64,000 bases of DNA, from the NCBI GenBank assembly GCA_026645775.1, contig JAPKMS010000040.1:20406-84405 (forward strand), written 5' to 3'. Positions 6,951 to 63,532 of this stretch are shown piece after piece. The position numbers were made by a program, and so were the translations under genes. This DNA is from Anaerolineae bacterium (GTDB lineage: Bacteria > Chloroflexota > Anaerolineae > CG2-30-64-16). The number at the start of each line of letters is the position of its first letter. The stretch's first letter is position 1. The notes under the pieces were generated by a model. The model did no database searches, was not told the DNA's origin, and worked only from the letters and a program-made list of their open reading frames with translations.

Positions 6951-8819
6951 ATGCTAACTGAACTCCGAATCCGTGACCTTGCCATCATTGACGAGCTCGA
7001 CCTGACCTTCGAGCCGGGCTTCAACGTGCTCACCGGTGAGACCGGCGCGGGCAAGTCGATCATCATCGACGCCGTCAACCTGCTGCTGGGTGACCGGGCC
7101 TCGGCTGATGTGGTGCGCGCCGGCGCGGAACGCACCGAGATCGAAGGCACGTACCAGCTTCGCGCTGCGGCCTCGGCGCGCCTGGCGCCGATCCTGGCCG
7201 AACATGGGTTGGAAGGCGACAGCCCGGACGAGCTCGTTCTGGCCCGCGAGGTGCGCGCCAATGGCCGTTCGATCGCCCGCGTCAACGGCCGGGCGGTCAC
7301 TACCGCCCTGCTGGGCGAGATCGGTGGGCGGCTGGTGGATGTGCACGGCCAGGGCGAACACCTCTCGCTGCTGCATGAACGGGAGCATCTTGGGTTGCTC
7401 GATCGCTATGCCGGGCTCAACGGGCAGGCCGCGGAGTTGGCCGAGCTGGTGCGGCGCGTGCGGGCCGTGCGGCGGGAACTGGAAGGGCTGCGCCAGAACG
7501 AGCGCGAGCGCGCCCGCCGCATCGATCTCCTCACCTACCAGATGGAAGAGATCGGCGCGGCCGCGTTGCAGCCGGGGGAGGAAGAGGCGCTGGAGGTCGA
7601 ACGCAAGCGCCTGGCCAACGCCGAGCAGCTTGCCGCTCTTAGCAGTGAGGCGGTCGCGCTCCTCGCCGGCGGCGATGATCCCGCGGAGGGGGAGCGGCTG
7701 GGCGCGGTGGATGCCCTGGGCGCGGCCGAGCAGGCGCTGACACGCCTCGCGCGCATTGACCCTGGCGCAGGGCCGCTGGCCGAACAACTCGGCGAGGCGG
7801 CCGCGGTGCTGGCCGATCTGACACACGAGCTGACGCGCTACCGCGAGGCTGTCGAGTTCAACCCCCGGCGGCTGGGACAAGTGGAGGAGCGCATCTATCT
7901 GCTCCATGCCCTGCAGCGCAAATACGGGGACACGGTGGCCGAGGTGTTGGCCTACGCCGAGCGCGCTGCGGCCGAGCTCGAGACCATCGGCCACGCGGAG
8001 GAGCGCATCGCCGATCTGGAAGCCGAGGAGGCCGGGCTGCTGAGCCGGATCGGCGCGGCCGGCGCGACGCTCTCGGCCAGGCGGCGGGCGGCCGGCGTGA
8101 CCCTGGCCCGCGCCATCGAGGCTGAGCTGGCCGATTTACAGATGGCCAAGGCGCGTTTCGCCGCCGACATCCACTGGACGGCCGATCCGACGGGCGCGAT
8201 CCTGGATGCGGAGACGGCCGCACAGGCCGGGCAGCCAGCCGGTCGCTATGCCTTCGACGGCCACGGGCTGGACGCGGTGGCTTTCCTCATCTCGGCCAAC
8301 CCCGGCGAGCCGCTGAAACCGATGGCCAAGGTGGCTTCCGGCGGCGAAACCTCACGGCTGATGCTGGCCCTGAAAACCGTCCTTGGCCGCGCCGATGAAA
8401 CCCCGACCCTGATTTTTGACGAGATCGACCAGGGCATCGGCGGCCGCGTGGGCGGCACGGTGGGCAGGAAGCTGTGGGAGCTGAGCAGGGGTCAGGAGTC
8501 AGGGGTCAGGAGACAGGAGTCAGGAGACAGGAGTCAGGAGACAGGGACCCGCTTCCAGCTTCTAGCTTCCAGCCACCAGGTTTTGTGCATCACCCACTTG
8601 CCGCAATTGGCGGCCTACGGCGACGCGCATTTTCGCGTCTCGAAGCATATCGTCGGCGAGCGGACGCTCACCGAGGTCAGCGTCTTGACGGACGAGGCCC
8701 GCGTGGCCGAGCTGGCGCAGATGATGGGCGCGGATTCCGAAGTCGGCCGCAGCAGCGTCGCAGAGATGCTGGGCGAAGTGGCGAGCCTTAAGCAAGCGAA
8801 AGGCGGAGATCTCAAATGA
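6951..8819 (+). CDS. recN: DNA repair protein RecN, carrying an in-frame low-complexity insertion
   Basis: N-terminal SMC-like Walker A (LTGETGAGKSIIIDAV), coiled-coil middle, C-terminal signature and Walker B (ASGGETSRLMLAL...LIFDEIDQGIGG). There are about 28 extra residues (RGQESGVRRQESGDRSQETGTRFQLLAS) before the HQVLCITHLPQ motif. Confidence 0.9.
   Translation: MLTELRIRDLAIIDELDLTFEPGFNVLTGETGAGKSIIIDAVNLLLGDRASADVVRAGAERTEIEGTYQLRAAASARLAPILAEHGLEGDSPDELVLAREVRANGRSIARVNGRAVTTALLGEIGGRLVDVHGQGEHLSLLHEREHLGLLDRYAGLNGQAAELAELVRRVRAVRRELEGLRQNERERARRIDLLTYQMEEIGAAALQPGEEEALEVERKRLANAEQLAALSSEAVALLAGGDDPAEGERLGAVDALGAAEQALTRLARIDPGAGPLAEQLGEAAAVLADLTHELTRYREAVEFNPRRLGQVEERIYLLHALQRKYGDTVAEVLAYAERAAAELETIGHAEERIADLEAEEAGLLSRIGAAGATLSARRRAAGVTLARAIEAELADLQMAKARFAADIHWTADPTGAILDAETAAQAGQPAGRYAFDGHGLDAVAFLISANPGEPLKPMAKVASGGETSRLMLALKTVLGRADETPTLIFDEIDQGIGGRVGGTVGRKLWELSRGQESGVRRQESGDRSQETGTRFQLLASSHQVLCITHLPQLAAYGDAHFRVSKHIVGERTLTEVSVLTDEARVAELAQMMGADSEVGRSSVAEMLGEVASLKQAKGGDLK
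8486..8573 (+). repeat. AGGAG-containing heptad tandem repeat (CAGGAGT/CAGGAGA, about 6 units) plus a CTTCCAGCTTCTAGCTTCCAGC tail, located in-frame inside recN
   Basis: Direct reading: ggtcaggagtcaggggtcaggagacaggagtcaggagacaggagtcaggagacaggga cccgcttccagcttctagcttccagcc. Confidence 0.6.
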
Positions 8820-18504: not shown

Positions 18505-19602
18505 ATGCGAGGTGGAATCTTGATCAGCGAAACTCGTCTAGTTGAAACTTTCCTTGACCTGGTTGCCATTGACAGCCCTTCCGGCCACGAAGAGCCGATC
18601 AGCAAGAATCTGGCCCGTCGCTTCACCGAGCTCGGCGGCGAGGTGGAGCAAGACGAGCATTGGAATCTGATTGCCCGCTTCCCGGCCGACCGGGGCGATT
18701 GGCTGATGCTCAGCGCGCACATGGACACCGTCGGGTTGGACACCGGTATCAAGCCGGTGATCCGCGACGGTGTGATCTACTCCGACGGCACGACGATCCT
18801 GGGCGGCGATGATAAGTCCGGCGTCGCCGCGATCCTGGAGACGATCCGTTCGCTGCGGGAAGCTGACCTGCCGCACCCACCCCTCGAGGTCGTCATCAGC
18901 GTGAGCGAGGAGGTTGGTCTGCGCGGGGCAAAGCTGCTGGACAAGAGCAAGCTGCGGGCGCGGCGCGGCTACGTGCTGGATGCCGGGGGTCCTATCGGCG
19001 TCATCGTCACCAATGCGCCCAGCCAGGATTCGCTGGAGATCAAGGTGCACGGCAAGAAGGCGCACGCGGGCAGCGAGCCGGAAAACGGCATCAATGCGAT
19101 CCGGGTAGCAAGCGAAGCCATTGCGGCAATGCCGTTGGGCCGCATCGACTTCGAGACGACGGCCAACATCGGCATCATCCAGGGCGGCGTTGCTACCAAC
19201 ATCGTGCCCGATGAGGTTTACATCAAGGGCGAGGCGCGCAGCCGGGACAACCTCAAGCTGGCGACCCAAACCGCGGCAATGGCTGCGGCGTTCCAGGACG
19301 CGGCGGAGCGCTATGGCGCGCACATCGATCTCAAGATCAAGCGCGCATATTCCACGTTCAAGCTGGCCGATGATCATCCTGTGGTCGCGGCCGCGGCCGC
19401 TGCGGCCCAGCGGCTGGGCCTCACGCCGATCATCAAAGGCAGTGGCGGCGGCAGCGATGCCAATATCTACGCGGAGTCTGGGGTCGAATGCGCGGTGCTC
19501 AGCACCGGCATGGCCAACGTGCACACGCCGCAAGAGCAAATCGCGATCGCCGACATGGTCGGCGCGGCGCGGCTGTTACAAGAGATCGTGGTTGAAAGTT
19601 GA
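18505..19602 (+). CDS. M20 family metallopeptidase (peptidase T / tripeptidase-like)
   Basis: SAHMDTVG and GGDDKSGVAAILE motifs. The true start may be the TTG at 18529 behind AGGTGG. Confidence 0.8.
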   Translation: MRGGILISETRLVETFLDLVAIDSPSGHEEPISKNLARRFTELGGEVEQDEHWNLIARFPADRGDWLMLSAHMDTVGLDTGIKPVIRDGVIYSDGTTILGGDDKSGVAAILETIRSLREADLPHPPLEVVISVSEEVGLRGAKLLDKSKLRARRGYVLDAGGPIGVIVTNAPSQDSLEIKVHGKKAHAGSEPENGINAIRVASEAIAAMPLGRIDFETTANIGIIQGGVATNIVPDEVYIKGEARSRDNLKLATQTAAMAAAFQDAAERYGAHIDLKIKRAYSTFKLADDHPVVAAAAAAAQRLGLTPIIKGSGGGSDANIYAESGVECAVLSTGMANVHTPQEQIAIADMVGAARLLQEIVVES

Positions 19603-19655
19603 GGATTCAAGGTTGAAGGTTGCAGTTCACACCTTCAACCTTGAACTTTCAACCA
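19589..19655 (+). repeat. AAGG/GAGG-rich tandem-repeat hairpin element overlapping the M20 gene stop
   Basis: Left arm ggttgaaagttgaggattcaaggttgaaggt, loop tgcagttcac, right arm accttcaaccttgaactttcaacc. Confidence 0.45.
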
Positions 19656-40878: not shown

Positions 40879-40969
40879 GAATTGGTAGATTGGTAGACTG
40901 GTAGATTGGGAAAAGCCTCGCGACAATCGGCATACCAGTTCCCCAAGTTACCGATTTACCAGTCTACCT
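40879..40969. repeat. GGTAGATTGG-type inverted-repeat element in the clpB 5' leader
   Basis: aattggtagattggtagactggtagattggg -N37- ttaccgatttaccagtctacc. Confidence 0.45.
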
Positions 40970-47597: not shown

Positions 47598-47670
47598 GAT
47601 AAGGCTAAGGATAAGGCTGAGAATTCATATGAACCTTCGACCTTAGCCTTGATCTCAACTTTAGCCTTAC
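47598..47670. repeat. AAGGCTNAGG tandem-repeat hairpin element after the permease gene
   Basis: gataaggctaaggataaggctgag ... accttagccttgatctcaactttagccttac. The right arm is homologous to the element at 50241-50292. Confidence 0.45.
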
Positions 47671-49892: not shown

Positions 49893-49924
49893 AGGCGGCC
49901 GCAAACTTCTGGCTGCATAAATCA

Positions 49925-49960
49925 CAGGCGTCAAACGCTTTGGGTAGCGTTTGACGCCTG
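49925..49960. terminator. perfect 14-bp bidirectional hairpin
   Basis: caggcgtcaaacgc-tttgggta-gcgtttgacgcctg. Confidence 0.55.
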
Positions 49961-49979
49961 TTCGCGCCGAGGACTCGCA

Positions 49980-50228
49980 TCACAGCGCTGCCGCGTGCCA
50001 TAAGCCCTTCTCCGTCAACACATACGTCGCGGCCGGAAACTTCATATTGCTGGCGATCAGCCCGTGCCGCTTGAGGGTCTCGACCACGGCGCGCTCCACG
50101 GCCTCGTCCGGCCCGTCGAGCGGGTGCAGGGTGTAGGTCTTTTCGCCGTCCAACGTCCGGTGGGCCTTGAGGGTCGCGCCGGCGAGCATGGTGCGCAAAA
50201 TGCGAGTAGATTCGGAGGAAAGCCTCAT
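49980..50228 (-). CDS. small (82 aa) protein, possibly winged-helix
   Basis: Last gene of the radical SAM operon. Carries a Y.LTEKG wing-like motif. Preceded by a GAGG-rich repeat. Confidence 0.4.
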   Translation of the reverse strand: MRLSSESTRILRTMLAGATLKAHRTLDGEKTYTLHPLDGPDEAVERAVVETLKRHGLIASNMKFPAATYVLTEKGLWHAAAL

Positions 50229-50240
50229 GAGCTGGGACTG

Positions 50241-50292
50241 CTCAACCTCGACCTTGGCCTTAACCTCAGCCTTAACCTCAGCCTCAACCTAA
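50241..50292. repeat. tandem AACCTCAGCCTT repeat (about 3.5 units; purine-rich AAGGCTGAGGTT on the minus strand)
   Basis: ctcaacctcgaccttggccttaacctcagccttaacctcagcctcaacct. Confidence 0.5.
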
Positions 50293-50490
50293 CTCCCTGA
50301 CGTACTGCTGCAACTGCCGCTGGTTGATCTTCTGAAACTGATCCGGGATGATCTCCGCCATCTCGGCCTCGCTCAGCCGGATGCGCAGGACTTCCAGCGC
50401 GTCCTCAGGCGATTGGCCGTAGGCCAGTTTCTTTTTGCCGCTCGTCATGGCGAACAAATACATGTAGTGGGGGTTGCTGAAGCTGCTCAT
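50284..50490 (-). CDS. small (68 aa) hypothetical protein, translationally coupled to the radical SAM gene
   Basis: The ATG overlaps the radical SAM stop (ATGA). No family recognised. Confidence 0.4.
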   Translation of the reverse strand: MSSFSNPHYMYLFAMTSGKKKLAYGQSPEDALEVLRIRLSEAEMAEIIPDQFQKINQRQLQQYVRELG

Positions 50491-51905
50491 GCCTTCACCA
50501 GCGCCTGTGCGTACAATCCCTGATACCCGCGCGCTTGCTCTTCCGGGCTCAGCCCCTGGTTGATTTCGGCGTCGTACTTGCCGGCCAGCAGCTCGCGGTA
50601 GAACTGGTAGTCCACGCCCCGCACCTTCTCGTCACCGGGGAAGCGATGGTAGTTTTCCTTCGACATCAGGCTCTTGCCCTCGGCGATGAGCTGGAAACCC
50701 AGGGCCGAGCCGGGATAGGGCGCGTAGTAGGAGATCGACGGGAAGACGCGCTTCATCCGCTTGAGCATGCGCATCGTCTTGAACGCGTCCTCGTGCGACT
50801 CGCCCGGGATGCCCAGCATGATGTTGGACCAGAAGCGCGGGGGCTGTTTGCCTTCGCGCGCCATGTCATCGCCGATGCGGTTCAGCAGATCGATGGCGAA
50901 GTTGTTGTCCTCTTCGGTGCATTCCTTGTTCAGGAGCTTGAGGGTGCGGTCGCTGCCCGACTCGAAGCCGATGGAGATCAGGTTCCAGTTGGTCTCCCGC
51001 ACCAGCGCCTCGAAGAGATCGGGCCATTGGCGCACAGTGTCGGCCCGGCCGGCCGCCCAATACGTCCAGCGCTTGTGCGCCTTGCGCGGATACTTGTCGA
51101 TCCACTCCCGCAGCCAGCTCGGATTCTGGAAGAACATCGAGTCATGGATCACGAACGAGCCGACCCCGTACTTGTCATCCAGGTAGTTGAGCTCGTCTAT
51201 CACCGCATCGACCGGTTTGCGGCCCATGTTGGGGACGTAGGAGCTCTCGTTGCAGAACACGCACTGCCATGGGCATACGCGGCTGGTGAGCAAGGTGACG
51301 ACCGGGCCAGGCCCCCAGCCGCACTCCGGCTCCAGCGGCCAGTTAAAGCGGCGGCTGATGCGGCGGCTGGCCGGTTTGGGCCACAGCGTACGGTCGATCA
51401 TGGGCCACTCGGCCATCGACGCGGCGCTCTCGCCGATCACCAGGCGCGGAAACGCGGCGTGATCGTGCACCAGATCCACGATGACCTTCTCGCCCGGCCC
51501 CTGGCAGACGTGGTCGAACTCGGCGATTTCCAGCATTTCGTCCGGCGCAACGGTGGCGTGCATGCCGCCGGCCATCACGATCCCGTGTGGGTTCACCTCT
51601 TTGAAAACCTGCGCGGCCTTGCGGCCCGAGGGGAAGGTGTAGCTTCGCACGTTCATCAGCGCCATCTCGTAGCCGGCAATCTGCCGCTTGAGTTGGTCCC
51701 ACGAAGTGACGGCGCGGGTCGAGACAACATCGGTCAGGGTTCCGTTTTGATGGAGGATGGTGCGGAGGAGCCCCAAGCCATGGTCCTGCCACTGTTCGTG
51801 CGGCCCGTCCGGGTTTACCAGATCGCCCAGGTCACCCAGGTCGATCCAGACGATTTTCGGTTTTTCCTGTTTCCACGGCCAAGCTATACGCATCTTGTAC
51901 ATCAC
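50487..51905 (-). CDS. B12-binding-domain radical SAM protein (class B)
   Basis: CPWQCVFC (CxxxCxxC) cluster and N-terminal Rossmann-like B12-binding-type domain. Confidence 0.8.
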   Translation of the reverse strand: MMYKMRIAWPWKQEKPKIVWIDLGDLGDLVNPDGPHEQWQDHGLGLLRTILHQNGTLTDVVSTRAVTSWDQLKRQIAGYEMALMNVRSYTFPSGRKAAQVFKEVNPHGIVMAGGMHATVAPDEMLEIAEFDHVCQGPGEKVIVDLVHDHAAFPRLVIGESAASMAEWPMIDRTLWPKPASRRISRRFNWPLEPECGWGPGPVVTLLTSRVCPWQCVFCNESSYVPNMGRKPVDAVIDELNYLDDKYGVGSFVIHDSMFFQNPSWLREWIDKYPRKAHKRWTYWAAGRADTVRQWPDLFEALVRETNWNLISIGFESGSDRTLKLLNKECTEEDNNFAIDLLNRIGDDMAREGKQPPRFWSNIMLGIPGESHEDAFKTMRMLKRMKRVFPSISYYAPYPGSALGFQLIAEGKSLMSKENYHRFPGDEKVRGVDYQFYRELLAGKYDAEINQGLSPEEQARGYQGLYAQALVKA

Positions 51906-52029
51906 CTGTAGAGAATTAGGAAGCTATTCTAACCGATTTTGGGGAGATAAGCCAATTTGCCTGCCGCTGAGCTTGCGCGGTTTGACCTTCTGGATTGCTT
52001 CAACTATACTCGCAGCCAGGAGATCTAAG

Positions 52030-52356
52030 ATGGAAACAATCCAGGTAGAAGTATCGTCGGAACTGGCCCAACGGCTGCGGACCTATCCAGATAAGCTCAC
52101 ACAGATCTTAGAAAGGGGACTGCACATCATCGAAGCCGAAGAAAGGCCTGCTGCGACGAGTATTTCCTCTGCACGCCAAAAGACACTTGACGCCTTGCGC
52201 GCCTCCGGGCTGATGCTGGAACTCGATCCCACTCTGGTCAAGCGTTACCGGGCGGGGATAGACAAACCGCGCTGCACGCCCGTCTATGTGAAGGGCAAGC
52301 CCTTAAGCGAGATAATCATAGCAGAGCGCGGGCCGGCATGGGATGACCAGGCATGA
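52030..52356 (+). CDS. antitoxin of VapBC-type pair
   Basis: 109-aa ORF behind CAGGAGATC. It ends in an ATGA overlap with the PIN-domain gene. Confidence 0.55.
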   Translation: METIQVEVSSELAQRLRTYPDKLTQILERGLHIIEAEERPAATSISSARQKTLDALRASGLMLELDPTLVKRYRAGIDKPRCTPVYVKGKPLSEIIIAERGPAWDDQA

Positions 52357-52814
52357 CCACCTACTATCTTGATAGCAGCGCTCTGGTCAAACGTTACGCG
52401 GTAGAGATCGGCACGGCATGGGTGCGGATGCTCTGCGAACAAGCCGATAACGTGATTGCAGTAGCCTTGTTTGGGTTAGCAGAGGTAGCAGCCGCAGTCA
52501 ATGGCAAACTCCGTGGCAAAGCAATTGATTCGGCCACCAGCGACGCAATTCTGAACGACCTTAAGGCTGATGCAGTAGCGCAGTATTCATTGCTGGATGT
52601 TGACCAATTTGTGGTTGATGAGGCAATGGATTTGACCAGCCGACATCGCCTGCGCGGCTATGACGCAATCCATCTTGCCAGCGCCTTGCGTCTCAATCGC
52701 GCGTTGACCGAACTTCAGTTACCCCCGCTCATCCTGGTTTCTGCTGATGGCGATCTTTTGAAGGCGGCGCAGGGTGAGCATCTTGCAATCGAGAACCCCA
52801 ACGAGCATCCCTGA
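52353..52814 (+). CDS. vapC: PIN-domain toxin VapC
   Basis: YYLDSSALVK N-terminal acidic motif and conserved PIN Asp residues. Confidence 0.8.
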   Translation: MTTYYLDSSALVKRYAVEIGTAWVRMLCEQADNVIAVALFGLAEVAAAVNGKLRGKAIDSATSDAILNDLKADAVAQYSLLDVDQFVVDEAMDLTSRHRLRGYDAIHLASALRLNRALTELQLPPLILVSADGDLLKAAQGEHLAIENPNEHP

Positions 52815-52816
52815 CG

Positions 52817-53803
52817 ATGGGTCGAGGCGCGTACGAGCAAAACTATACCCAGCTCAATCTCCCCGAGCTGGCGATCGACGCTGTAGACGCGACGCCAACC
52901 GCGGTCGCGCTGTCTTCTGATTTGACCGGCCCTGGCCCGGCAGCGGTCGATCTGTACTGCGCCGACAACCTGGCGCTGCTCGACGCATTGAGCGGGCCGT
53001 GGGCCGGCACGTTCCAGTTGATCTACCTCGATCCGCCGTTCGGCAGCGGCAAGGTCTACAGCGCCCGCGTCGACGGCGCGCCGGGCCGGGGTGCGCAGCC
53101 GGTGGATGCCTACCGGGACACCCAAGATTTCGATGCCTATCTCGCCTGGCTGGACCGGCGGCTGGCGTTTTGCCGCGACCTGCTGGCGGCCAGCGGCACG
53201 CTGTACGTCCACCTCGACTGGCATGCGGTGCACTATGTCAAAGTGTCGCTGGACCGCCTCTTCGGCCGCGAGCGCTTCCTCAACGAGATCATCTGGTGCT
53301 ACCACGGGCCATCGCCCATCCGTAGCGCGTTCAAGCGCAAACACGACACGATCCTGGTCTACACCCGCTCGGCCGATTATTTCTTCGATGCGGACGCCGT
53401 GCGGGTGCCTTATGATCCAGCGACGGTGAAGACGTTTGCCAGCAGCCCCAAAGCCGGGTTCGGCAAGGCGCCCGATCTAGCGCGCGGCAAGGTGCCGGAG
53501 GACTGGTGGTATTTTCCGGTGGTAGCGCGGATGCACTCCGAGCGCACCGGCTACGAGACACAGAAGCCCGAGGCGCTGCTGGCGCGGATCATCAAGGCGT
53601 CCAGCCGGCCGGGCGATCGGGTAGGCGACTTCTTTGCCGGCGCCGGCACGACCGGCGTGGTCGCCGCGCGGCTGGGGCGTGGTGCGGTGCTGGTTGATCG
53701 GAACCCGGTAGCGGTGGAGAAGAGCCTGCTGCGCCTGGCGCGGCTCGAACCCCGGCCGCAGGTCAGCCTCTGGCGTTATTTTGCCCATCAGGCCCAGGAG
53801 TGA
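52817..53803 (+). CDS. beta-class N4/N6 DNA methyltransferase (orphan)
   Basis: Motif IV DPPF (LIYLDPPFGSG) lies upstream of motif I (FFAGAGTTGVVAARLGRG). No restriction-endonuclease partner is visible. Confidence 0.8.
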   Translation: MGRGAYEQNYTQLNLPELAIDAVDATPTAVALSSDLTGPGPAAVDLYCADNLALLDALSGPWAGTFQLIYLDPPFGSGKVYSARVDGAPGRGAQPVDAYRDTQDFDAYLAWLDRRLAFCRDLLAASGTLYVHLDWHAVHYVKVSLDRLFGRERFLNEIIWCYHGPSPIRSAFKRKHDTILVYTRSADYFFDADAVRVPYDPATVKTFASSPKAGFGKAPDLARGKVPEDWWYFPVVARMHSERTGYETQKPEALLARIIKASSRPGDRVGDFFAGAGTTGVVAARLGRGAVLVDRNPVAVEKSLLRLARLEPRPQVSLWRYFAHQAQE

Positions 53804-62253: not shown

Positions 62254-63532
62254 AGCTGTCGCCGTCGATCCGCGCGACCTGGCAGCCCGCGGCCTCCAGC
62301 TCCTGCGCCACCGCTGCAGGGATGGCCTCCGCGCCGCTGCCGATCAGGGTGACGCGGGCGGCCTGGCGCGCCTGGGCCTTGTCGAAGCCGACCGTGAGCC
62401 CAAACGTCTGCACGTAGGCGACGGCAAGCTGCCAGTTCACGCGGCCGGCCGGCGTGTTGACCGGGGCCAGCAACACGTAGTGCGGCAGCGGCTTCTCCGC
62501 CGGTGCGGGCATTTCCGGCACGGCCAGGTTCACGGTGACGCTGTTTTGTCCATCCAGCAGGATTTCAGCGGATGTGACCGCCGTGCCCGCCACCGAGACC
62601 TGGTAAAGCCCGGCCGCCAAGGCCCTGAACGCGAAGCTGTCATCGGCCGCGAGGGCGGTTGTGGCAACTGTGGCGCCCTCGCACAGCAGCACGATTGAAC
62701 GTCCGGCGCCGTTGGTCACGCGGCCCTGCACCACGCTGACGTTAGCAGGCGCCGGTGCGGGCGTTTCCGGCACGGCCAGGTTCACGGTGACGCTGTTCTG
62801 CCCATCCAGCACGATATCGGCGGATGTGACCGCCGTGCCCGCCACCGAGAGCCGGTAAACGCCGGCCGCCAGCGCGCTGAACGAGAAGTTGCCATCGGCC
62901 GCGAGGACCGTTGTGGCAACCGTGGCACCTTCGCGCTGCAGAACGATCGAGCGCCCGGCGCCGTTGGTCACGCGGCCCTGCACCCCGCTGGCGTTGACAG
63001 GCATCGGCACGGCCGCCGTGACACGCTGGAAGGTTACCTCGAAGCTGTGATGGAACCGGGTGTTGCCCGTGGCTTCGTCGGGGTGATCGGTGTGCAGGCC
63101 AGTCACTTTGTCGCTGGCCAGCTCTAGCCCCGGCACCCCCAGCGCGATCACATCACACACCTGGCCGGGCCACATGGGCAGATTGGTGCCAGGCTCGCTG
63201 GTTGGCTTATCCACCGTCACGACCTGGAACCCACCGGACCAGCCGATCCGCGCCTGCGCGCCGTAAATACGGGCGCCGGCCTCGTCGTTGATGTTGACAT
63301 AGAGGTTCTGCCGGCCGTTGTTTTCGTGCGGGGCTAGGTGGCGGACGCGGACGGCCTTCCAATAGCTGGCGCCGGCCGCCGGTGTCGCAGACGTCACCTG
63401 CACGCCATAGGCGGCAGCTTCGTTGGCATCACTGCTGACGCCGCGGCTGACCGCGGCCGGCTGGGATGTCGCTCGGCCAAGCAATGCCTCCCACAACCGC
63501 TTCCAAAATGTCGCGAATGTCATGGCGCGCAT
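62204..63532 (-). CDS. repeat-domain protein: novel module + 2 near-identical CarboxypepD_reg-like repeats + CWB2-like C-terminal domain
   Basis: The tandem 73-aa repeats VQGRVTNGAGRSIVL...NSVTVNLAVPE are about 90% identical. The C-terminal 85 aa align with the C-termini of the ORFs at 1057..4251 and 63537. Confidence 0.65.
   Translation of the reverse strand: MRAMTFATFWKRLWEALLGRATSQPAAVSRGVSSDANEAAAYGVQVTSATPAAGASYWKAVRVRHLAPHENNGRQNLYVNINDEAGARIYGAQARIGWSGGFQVVTVDKPTSEPGTNLPMWPGQVCDVIALGVPGLELASDKVTGLHTDHPDEATGNTRFHHSFEVTFQRVTAAVPMPVNASGVQGRVTNGAGRSIVLQREGATVATTVLAADGNFSFSALAAGVYRLSVAGTAVTSADIVLDGQNSVTVNLAVPETPAPAPANVSVVQGRVTNGAGRSIVLLCEGATVATTALAADDSFAFRALAAGLYQVSVAGTAVTSAEILLDGQNSVTVNLAVPEMPAPAEKPLPHYVLLAPVNTPAGRVNWQLAVAYVQTFGLTVGFDKAQARQAARVTLIGSGAEAIPAAVAQELEAAGCQVARIDGDSYAIEAELARRIAAGQA

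Follow-up and report, generated by a model that had tools for sequence, protein, structure and literature searches.

Cobalamin (B12)-dependent radical S-adenosylmethionine (rSAM) enzymes form a very large class, most of which is uncharacterised. Among the class B C-methyltransferases, the substrates of GenK and Fom3 are small molecules or sugars, and those of MgmA/QCMT and Mmp10 are proteins. In the PqqE-PqqD and MftC-MftB pairs an rSAM enzyme has a small dedicated partner, sometimes fused to it, and in the Clostridia the SCIFF peptide is a small product conserved lineage-wide together with its rSAM maturase. A 2026 review of the B12-dependent class names the C-methyltransferases as its largest group, with carbohydrates, metabolites and proteins as substrates, and the words 'partner' and 'accessory protein' are absent from its text (PMC12931638). 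Here we describe an operon on the minus strand of a 64,000-nucleotide stretch of DNA from an Anaerolineae bacterium (contig JAPKMS010000040.1; the whole stretch is called the window), in which a class B rSAM gene is followed by genes for a 68-residue protein (p68) and an 82-residue protein (p82). We give roughly even chances to the reading that the operon encodes a two-component cobalamin-dependent rSAM enzyme, with the rSAM protein and p68 as the core and p82 as an accessory, and with a sugar or glycan as the best lead for its substrate. We found nothing specific in the literature on the rSAM-p68 family.

The module runs, on the minus strand, from the rSAM gene through p68, a 55-nt spacer and p82 to a 16-bp hairpin. 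Every element described in the original prediction (the rSAM gene, p68, the repeat in the spacer, p82 and the hairpin) is present. The coding features, in window coordinates, are the following:

50487..51893, minus strand: class B (B12-binding) rSAM gene, 468 aa from the ATG at 51893
51471..51698, minus strand: N-terminal cobalamin-binding-type Rossmann segment, PF02310, residues 70-145 of the 472-aa open reading frame (ORF)
51252..51275, minus strand: CPWQCVFC, the CxxxCxxC [4Fe-4S] motif, read from the sequence
50284..50490, minus strand: p68, 68 aa, whose start overlaps the rSAM stop as ATGA
49980..50228, minus strand: p82, 82 aa, distant YjhX-like protein with weak winged-helix-type matches

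The longest rSAM ORF (51905..50487) gives 472 aa from a GTG. The true start is probably the ATG at 51893, because the identical gene of a near-identical strain (L008) is called at 468 aa and relatives measure 468-470 aa. The predicted domain and motif make-up is that of a class B rSAM protein. Pfam Radical_SAM (PF04055) is matched at 40.4 bits (cutoff 29.5) and the B12-binding domain (PF02310), just short of its gathering cutoff, at 30.1 bits (cutoff 32.1; E = 4.6e-7), and PF02310 is among the precomputed Pfam domains of nearly all the homologues. The three cysteines of the cluster motif are invariant in the alignment, including relatives that are only 38-55% identical.

Like the class B C-methyltransferases, the window protein carries a CxxxCxxC rSAM core, preceded at the N-terminus by a putative Rossmann domain of the B12 type; unlike them, it comes near the cutoff of no curated subfamily. 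All 21 of its NCBIfam matches lie about 5- to 20-fold under the curated cutoff. The best is BchE (TIGR02026; 65.2 bits, cutoff 481), and the scores for HpnJ (TIGR03471; 58.4 against 577.6), HpnR (TIGR04367; 36.4 against 650), MJ_1487 (60 against 251) and MgmA (TIGR04014; 32.1 against 360) are no closer. The sole solved structure reached by a sequence search is that of MgmA/QCMT (PDB 9CCB; E = 1.3e-4). Some homologues carry the JGI names 'anaerobic Mg-protoporphyrin IX monomethyl ester cyclase' or 'YgiQ'. Identity with YgiQ/UPF0313 was rejected, since BLASTP against E. coli YgiQ gives E = 0.3 and aligns the motif region alone; a relationship with YgiQ/RlmX was dropped on the same value, on the unconfirmed assumption that E. 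coli YgiQ is RlmX. The homologues fall into 1614 clusters at 90% identity, the best 120 of which are 75-87% identical to the window protein. A relative occurs in 441 GTDB species genomes; the best 80 of the 441 are all metagenome-assembled genomes of Caldilineales/Anaerolineae, at 73-86% identity. Representatives taken at 50% identity stand at 61, 55, 51, 46 and 43%, and are followed by generic B12-rSAM proteins at about 30-36%. Judged from these comparisons, the rSAM protein belongs to a tight orthologue group outside every curated family. The original prediction had seen no bacteriochlorophyll or hopanoid genes nearby and hence no contextual support for BchE/HpnP-type roles. The NCBIfam search places the enzyme outside the BchE and HpnJ families, and among the window ORFs and in the Pfam scan no bch gene was found within about 5 kb and no hpn gene nearby.

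The link between the rSAM protein and p68 rests on four lines of observation: strict synteny, translational coupling, two fusions and carriage by phage-like contigs. A hidden Markov model census, which took genome loci with at least 300 nt beyond the rSAM gene, found p68 after the rSAM gene at 77 of 77 loci, with a gap of mostly -3 to +15 nt, and p68 also follows nearly every metagenome rSAM gene whose product is at least 60% identical to the window protein. The co-occurrence of the three genes across genomes, which had been proposed as a check, is borne out, with p82 present at 59 of 74 loci, and the coupling of the rSAM and p68 genes through their ATGA overlap is as had been described. The homologues of p68 form 2770 clusters; a length of 68 aa is shared by 119 of the 120 listed, and the remaining one measures 69 aa. 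A cluster in this list bears the name of cultured Caldilinea, and the same gene arrangement is seen in Caldilinea-type assemblies. Fusions in which p68 forms the C-terminus of the rSAM protein were sampled separately twice, as P0318 (521 aa) and on L175 (511 aa), the former on contigs from two different samples (L181/L182). A further fusion (P0317, on L183) joins a tetratricopeptide repeat (TPR) region to the rSAM protein; here the 68-aa protein is encoded by a gene of its own, which begins within the rSAM gene and overlaps its end by 4 nt. Finally, three AT-rich IMG/VR contigs (L095/L178, L096 and L097/L179; GC 0.35-0.37) carry an rSAM gene whose product is 54-65% identical to that of the window; p68 comes after it on two of them, and the third ends within the rSAM gene. 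A paralogue clade of about 41% identity (L098-L101) has no adjoining p68. In one member of this p68-less clade (P0322) we noticed, by reading and without a family search, an intein-like insert with a LAGLIDADG-type endonuclease, which splits the cluster motif exactly (CPWK | C...HN | CSFC).

The p68 gene is a real gene under strong purifying selection (ratio of nonsynonymous to synonymous substitution, dN/dS, 0.05-0.2). Its product has no cysteines and is conserved along its full length, with no leader/core pattern; F13, G18, K21, G25, A31, L35, R38, L39, Q57, L67 and G68 are invariant in all contexts, fusions included. An AlphaFold2 (AF2) model built from 56 sequences predicts an α/β domain with a mean predicted local distance difference test (pLDDT) score of 86.6, made of β9-15, β20-25, α28-38, α41-46, β47-55 and α57-67; only residues 1-4 score below 50, and the first ten residues average 63. 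The best structural matches include the ribosomal protein eL20/LX, the epsilon subunit of RNA polymerase (RNAP) and the Spt5 NGN domain. A fold search of BFVD gave no match at E <= 0.001, a sequence search of the PDB with the p68 profile gave nothing significant, and p68 falls into no Pfam, NCBIfam, PHROG or PADLOC family. The original prediction had put forward, as one option, a small-protein or peptide-modifying system with methylation or cyclisation like that of ribosomally synthesized and post-translationally modified peptides (RiPPs). A role of p68 as a RiPP precursor is not supported: the protein has a fixed length, whole-length conservation and a confidently predicted fold, and it can be fused to the enzyme. 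Moreover, no gene for a RiPP recognition element (RRE), a protease or a transporter or exporter was found among the three proteins or their neighbours with Pfam and NCBIfam.

Uniform conservation, fixed length, a folded domain, the fusions and the phage-like carriage suggest instead that p68 is probably a dedicated partner subunit, and its constant pairing with the rSAM protein, in the Caldilineales as well as on the phage-like contigs, that the two probably make up a two-part enzyme. Like PqqD and MftB, p68 is small and non-catalytic, is encoded beside its rSAM gene, is strictly inherited together with it and in a few cases forms a fusion with the enzyme. Like the SCIFF pair, p68 and its rSAM protein are highly conserved across a lineage and look like a housekeeping system, not a sporadic natural-product cluster; unlike SCIFF, p68 is a cysteine-free protein with a predicted domain fold, and some organisms have it as part of the rSAM polypeptide. 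The rSAM-p68 pair differs from both the PqqE/PqqD and the SCIFF pairs in fold, in enzyme class and in having no precursor peptide. What sets it apart from the described class B C-methyltransferases is an obligatory 68-aa partner that itself has no family in Pfam, NCBIfam, PHROG or PADLOC.

In the mechanism that we propose, the 468-aa protein would be the catalytic subunit and would bind a [4Fe-4S] cluster through C-x3-C-x2-C. By analogy with other class B enzymes, it would cleave SAM reductively to give the 5'-deoxyadenosyl radical and would use cobalamin held in the N-terminal Rossmann domain; the likeliest reaction, to go by the class, would be methylation of an unactivated carbon. Co-translated p68 would probably dock near the C-terminal region of the rSAM protein, as a specificity or substrate-presenting subunit. 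p82 may be a DNA-binding accessory protein, outside the obligatory core.

As to the substrate, we would rank a sugar or glycan (a nucleotide-sugar or an envelope polysaccharide) first, because of the operons in which the more distant members are found. The three cellular contexts recovered outside the Caldilineales are all glycan or nucleotide-sugar operons. On L183, a family 2 glycosyltransferase (GT2) gene is followed by the TPR-rSAM gene, p68, a second GT2 gene, two methyltransferase genes and a DegT aminotransferase gene; on L181, the rSAM::p68 fusion is accompanied by NTP_transferase and NAD epimerase/4,6-dehydratase genes; and on L175, the fusion lies between a GT1 gene and a GT4-like gene. 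A paralogue without p68, on L099, has the order GT2, rSAM, methyltransferase, FkbM methyltransferase. The presence of distant family members in sugar and glycan operons is a further likeness to the class, which is known to alkylate carbohydrates (PMC12931638). The upstream ORFs of L099 resemble phage capsid genes by reading, without a family search. The product of a Caldilineaceae multi-rSAM cluster would come second, and a component of the translation apparatus third, the latter on account of the tRNA arrays of the phage-like contigs, the fold resemblance of p68 and the precedent of RlmX.

Several findings weigh against the two-component reading or against its glycan lead. Matches to a panel of glycan genes were found at only 15 of the 80 loci from genomes and at 2 of the 76 from metagenomes, and a general association with glycan genes within the Caldilineales is ruled out by these counts. 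What recurs there is an ErpA-type Fe-S insertion protein and/or DUF2203, present at 71 of 156 Caldilineales-type loci, always on the rSAM strand (upstream of the rSAM gene in 62 loci and downstream in 9), and further rSAM genes are common beside these loci. Methylation is an expectation drawn from the class, and class B enzymes also carry out ring contraction, cyclisation and other reactions. The tight adjacency of the rSAM and p68 genes is equally what would be expected of an enzyme and its substrate, and the N-terminal tail of p68 (MSSFS.PH), which is invariant in the Caldilineales and predicted to be disordered, would suit a modified tail.

The Caldilineaceae cluster was observed twice (L185, 1162-9620; L013, 4520-12207) and comprises MoaA, ErpA, DUF2203, a rhodanese or NifU protein, two B12-rSAM proteins, a SPASM/twitch rSAM protein and the rSAM-p68 pair. 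On L185 the genes lie on the same strand in the order helix-turn-helix (HTH) protein, Fic, MoaA, ErpA, DUF2203, rhodanese, B12-rSAM, B12-rSAM, SPASM rSAM, the rSAM orthologue and p68; MoaA and ErpA score over their NCBIfam cutoffs, and the other rSAM proteins fit no curated family.

The adjacency and the tail belong to the best of the alternatives, in which p68 is not a subunit but the substrate, a lineage-wide small protein modified by the B12-rSAM enzyme, for example by C-methylation at the N-terminal tail or at the C-terminal Leu-Gly. Such a system would resemble the SCIFF peptide and rSAM pair of Clostridia, or the methylation of methyl-coenzyme M reductase (MCR) by MgmA. Strict adjacency with translational coupling, the invariance and low pLDDT of the tail within the Caldilineales, and the invariance of L67-G68 at the extreme C-terminus in every version, fusions included, are all consistent with it, as is the fact that the only structure reached, that of MgmA/QCMT, is that of a protein C-methyltransferase, albeit with an E value of only 1.3e-4 and a TIGR04014 score of 32 against a cutoff of 360. 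However, the N-terminal tail is not kept in the phage and fused versions, conservation extends over the whole length without a leader and core, and two sampled sequences have p68 covalently joined to the enzyme. Outside the Caldilineales, p68 lies within glycan operons, and the protease, transporter and RRE genes that were looked for nearby were not found. We therefore regard p68 as unlikely to be the substrate.

The phage-like contigs bear on another alternative, in which the rSAM-p68 pair modifies the translation apparatus (rRNA, tRNA or a ribosomal protein) and p68 is an RNA- or ribosome-binding adaptor. On these contigs, the rSAM gene lies inside arrays of 9, 2 and 13 tRNAs. Inspection of their ORFs by eye, with no family search behind it, further assigned to them candidate HNH, GIY-YIG, RNA-ligase-like, GGQ/ArfB-like, QueC-like and TROVE genes, the last four of which count in favour of this alternative; L095, read in the same way, has IscU and two IscA-like genes. 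The resemblance of the p68 fold to eL20/LX, RNAP epsilon and Spt5 NGN points the same way, conservation this high within a whole order would suit a macromolecular target, and there is a precedent in RlmX, a cobalamin-dependent rSAM enzyme that methylates the ribose C5' of 23S rRNA (PMC13602947). Yet the phage-like contigs probably represent one phage lineage, because two of the three rSAM proteins are 75% identical, and perhaps a single acquisition; translation genes are not recurrent neighbours at any cellular locus; and similarity to E. coli YgiQ is absent (E = 0.3). A target in the translation apparatus thus appears improbable to us.

p82 is also a real gene and, like the other two genes of the module, is under purifying selection (dN/dS 0.13-0.28); it has 76 clusters of homologues and two conserved motifs, GATLKAHRTLDGEK and SNMKFPAATY.LTE.G. 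Of 74 loci, 59 have p82, which is adjacent in 55; at the loci without it unrelated genes come after p68, and the phage, fused and TPR versions of rSAM-p68 all lack it. Its absence from 15 of 74 loci and from the phage and fused forms implies that p82 is an accessory, not part of the core. The 'small regulator' proposed originally could be p82, which may be an operon regulator or an accessory factor, but only as a dispensable one. Like YjhX/TopAI (UPF0386, PF09857), p82 has a similar length and a weak end-to-end profile match (YjhX_toxin, 12.4 bits where the cutoff is 27; E = 0.16), and PF09857 is matched by 6 of 51 relatives of p82 (E < 0.01; best E = 1e-5), some relatives carrying a PF09857 domain or the YjhX name. 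Single relatives also match weakly MUS81-like_WH, Rio2_N and HVO_A0261_N, among other Pfam families. Unlike YjhX/TopAI, p82 stays under the gathering score, gives a probability of only 6% in hhalign against E. coli TopAI, and has no adjoining YjhQ-type acetyltransferase antitoxin (of the Gcn5-related N-acetyltransferase type) in the window, L001, L005 or L013; a sequence search of the PDB with the p82 profile gave nothing significant. p82 would thus be a distant relative of YjhX/TopAI at most. In the 75%-identical relative L001, the third gene is 108 aa long, with a C-terminal extension.

These features could be taken to mean that p68 is a small antitoxin and p82 the YjhX/TopAI-like toxin after it, in a pair of the type II toxin-antitoxin kind that merely lies downstream of an unrelated rSAM gene. 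The order and sizes of the genes resemble such a pair, the YjhX_toxin match of p82 is full-length, if weak, and a VapBC-like pair adjoins the operon. Nevertheless, p68 is tied to the rSAM protein (at 77 of 77 loci, in the fusions, and in phage and glycan contexts without p82), 15 of 74 loci lack p82, inheritance appears to be vertical and to span the lineage, with one orthologue group at 73-86% identity across the Caldilineales, and the comparison with TopAI fails; in addition, PADLOC and PHROGs returned no match for the rSAM protein, p68 or p82. A toxin-antitoxin pair is accordingly a very remote prospect. Least credible of all is that the rSAM protein simply belongs to a family already characterised (BchE, HpnJ/HpnR, MgmA, PhpK, a RiPP C-methyltransferase or YgiQ) with incidental small ORFs, as the cyclase and YgiQ names of some homologues and the best NCBIfam match to BchE might suggest, given scores far under the cutoffs (BchE 65 against 481, HpnJ 58 against 578, MgmA 32 against 360), the E value of 0.3 against E. 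coli YgiQ and the lack of bch or hpn genes nearby. In short, and with regard to the grounds on which the original prediction could have fallen, no characterised family fits the rSAM protein, and conservation and selection are seen in both small ORFs.

The remaining features of the locus lie in the spacer and at the two ends of the operon:

50240..50290, minus strand: 12-nt tandem repeat of the AAGGCTGAGGTT type (Tandem Repeats Finder, 50257-50290, 2.8 copies, 95% matches)
50225..50287, minus strand: predicted mini-ORF of 20 codons with a TTG start, MRLRLRLRLRPRSRLSSPSS, created by the repeat
51926..51955, minus strand: sigma-70-like promoter candidate, TTGGCT, 18-nt spacer, TAGAAT, matching the consensus at 9 of 12 positions
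49924..49961, no strand assigned: hairpin, probable terminator, with perfect 16-nt arms (49924-49939 and 49946-49961) and a 6-nt loop

The spacer between p68 and p82 varies across the family, and its repeat in the window is a lineage-specific insertion. Degenerate units stretch the array to about 50240, and the repeat is an exact 36-nt insertion relative to the 19-nt spacer of L005 (rSAM 87% identical); four near-identical strains (L008-L011) share it letter for letter. Where 0.11 occurrences of the core AAGGCTRAGG would be expected in the window, there are 4, the other copies lying at 47601, 47641 and 56037, and between the OppC-like permease gene and the dihydrodipicolinate synthase (DHDPS)-family gene (47598-47670) AAGGCT(A/G)AGG forms an inverted pair, TAAGGCTAAGGATAAGGCTGAG ... 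CCTTAGCCTTGATCTCAACTTTAGCCTTA. This excess and the intergenic copies suggest that the repeat belongs to a small dispersed intergenic family of the genome, and in the spacer it is probably a recent slippage expansion of that dispersed repeat. The original prediction had the repeat supply Shine-Dalgarno-like sites to p82. The nearest GAGG, read from the sequence, ends 17 nt ahead of the p82 ATG, so that the repeat offers no usable Shine-Dalgarno site, and the claim is not supported. A regulatory RNA structure was likewise ruled out, as the fold of the spacer is not significant (z = 0.2), and so was a coding role in p82: although the repeat shares the reading frame of p82, no start codon follows the TAG, and relatives do without the repeat. 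The predicted mini-ORF would start over the p68 stop (TTGA) and stop over the p82 start (ATGA), so that, in this lineage only, the rSAM gene, p68, the mini-ORF and p82 would overlap one after another without a gap; the mini-ORF is not conserved elsewhere, because the repeat is absent there. In L001, the spacer (7620-7745) is 126 nt long and has no tandem repeat, and an apparent inverted repeat, gacacggcgac...gttcgccgtgtc, was judged there by eye. Other tandem repeats observed in the window are a heptamer, CAGGAGT (8.6 copies, 8486-8546), neighbouring arrays of GGTTGAA and its complement TTCAACC (19590-19654), an octamer, ATTGGTAG (3.6 copies, 40881-40909), and a 252-nt unit present twice at 87% identity (62498-63002).

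The candidate promoter, located by a consensus scan only, lies about 20-50 nt upstream of the rSAM start. At the other end, the hairpin sits between the convergent p82 and N-acetylglucosamine (GlcNAc) 2-epimerase genes. What had been called a strong bidirectional terminator is indeed a 16-bp hairpin with a marked RNA fold (-35.4 kcal/mol, z = -4.69; 0 of 200 shuffles equal it), but it has no proper U-tract and, for that reason, was not called by the terminator scan; it is best kept as a probable terminator. Rfam, at the gathering threshold, matched no RNA family over the whole window and hence no cobalamin riboswitch. The flanking genes in the window encode the GlcNAc 2-epimerase, a DHDPS-family protein, ABC permeases, a PIN-toxin pair, a DNA methyltransferase and a GT2 protein, and because the flanks vary from genome to genome (at loci including L001, L005 and L013), only the module itself is kept. 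In the region 52030-53803, a 108-aa ORF and a PIN-domain gene, read as a VapBC-like toxin-antitoxin pair, separate the candidate rSAM promoter from a divergent N6/N4 DNA methyltransferase gene (52817-53803). In L005, the relative at 87% identity, the methyltransferase gene is directly divergent from the rSAM gene, and the VapBC-like pair therefore looks like an insertion.

What emerges from this analysis is a clean two-gene unit, made of a B12-type rSAM protein and a family-less 68-aa protein, and as p68 is recorded in cultured Caldilinea, a cultured organism is probably available for testing the unit. Should p68 be a specificity subunit, as we favour, it would represent a new way to target B12-rSAM chemistry; should it be the substrate instead, it would add a new modified protein, one that is lineage-wide. 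More speculatively, and in a form that we consider doubtful as a whole, the rSAM-p68 pair may be the first class B rSAM enzyme to need a dedicated small subunit and may carry out a housekeeping modification of an envelope glycan sugar or of the translation apparatus across the Caldilineales; large tRNA-rich phages would then have captured the pair along with IscU/IscA genes and would impose the same modification during infection.

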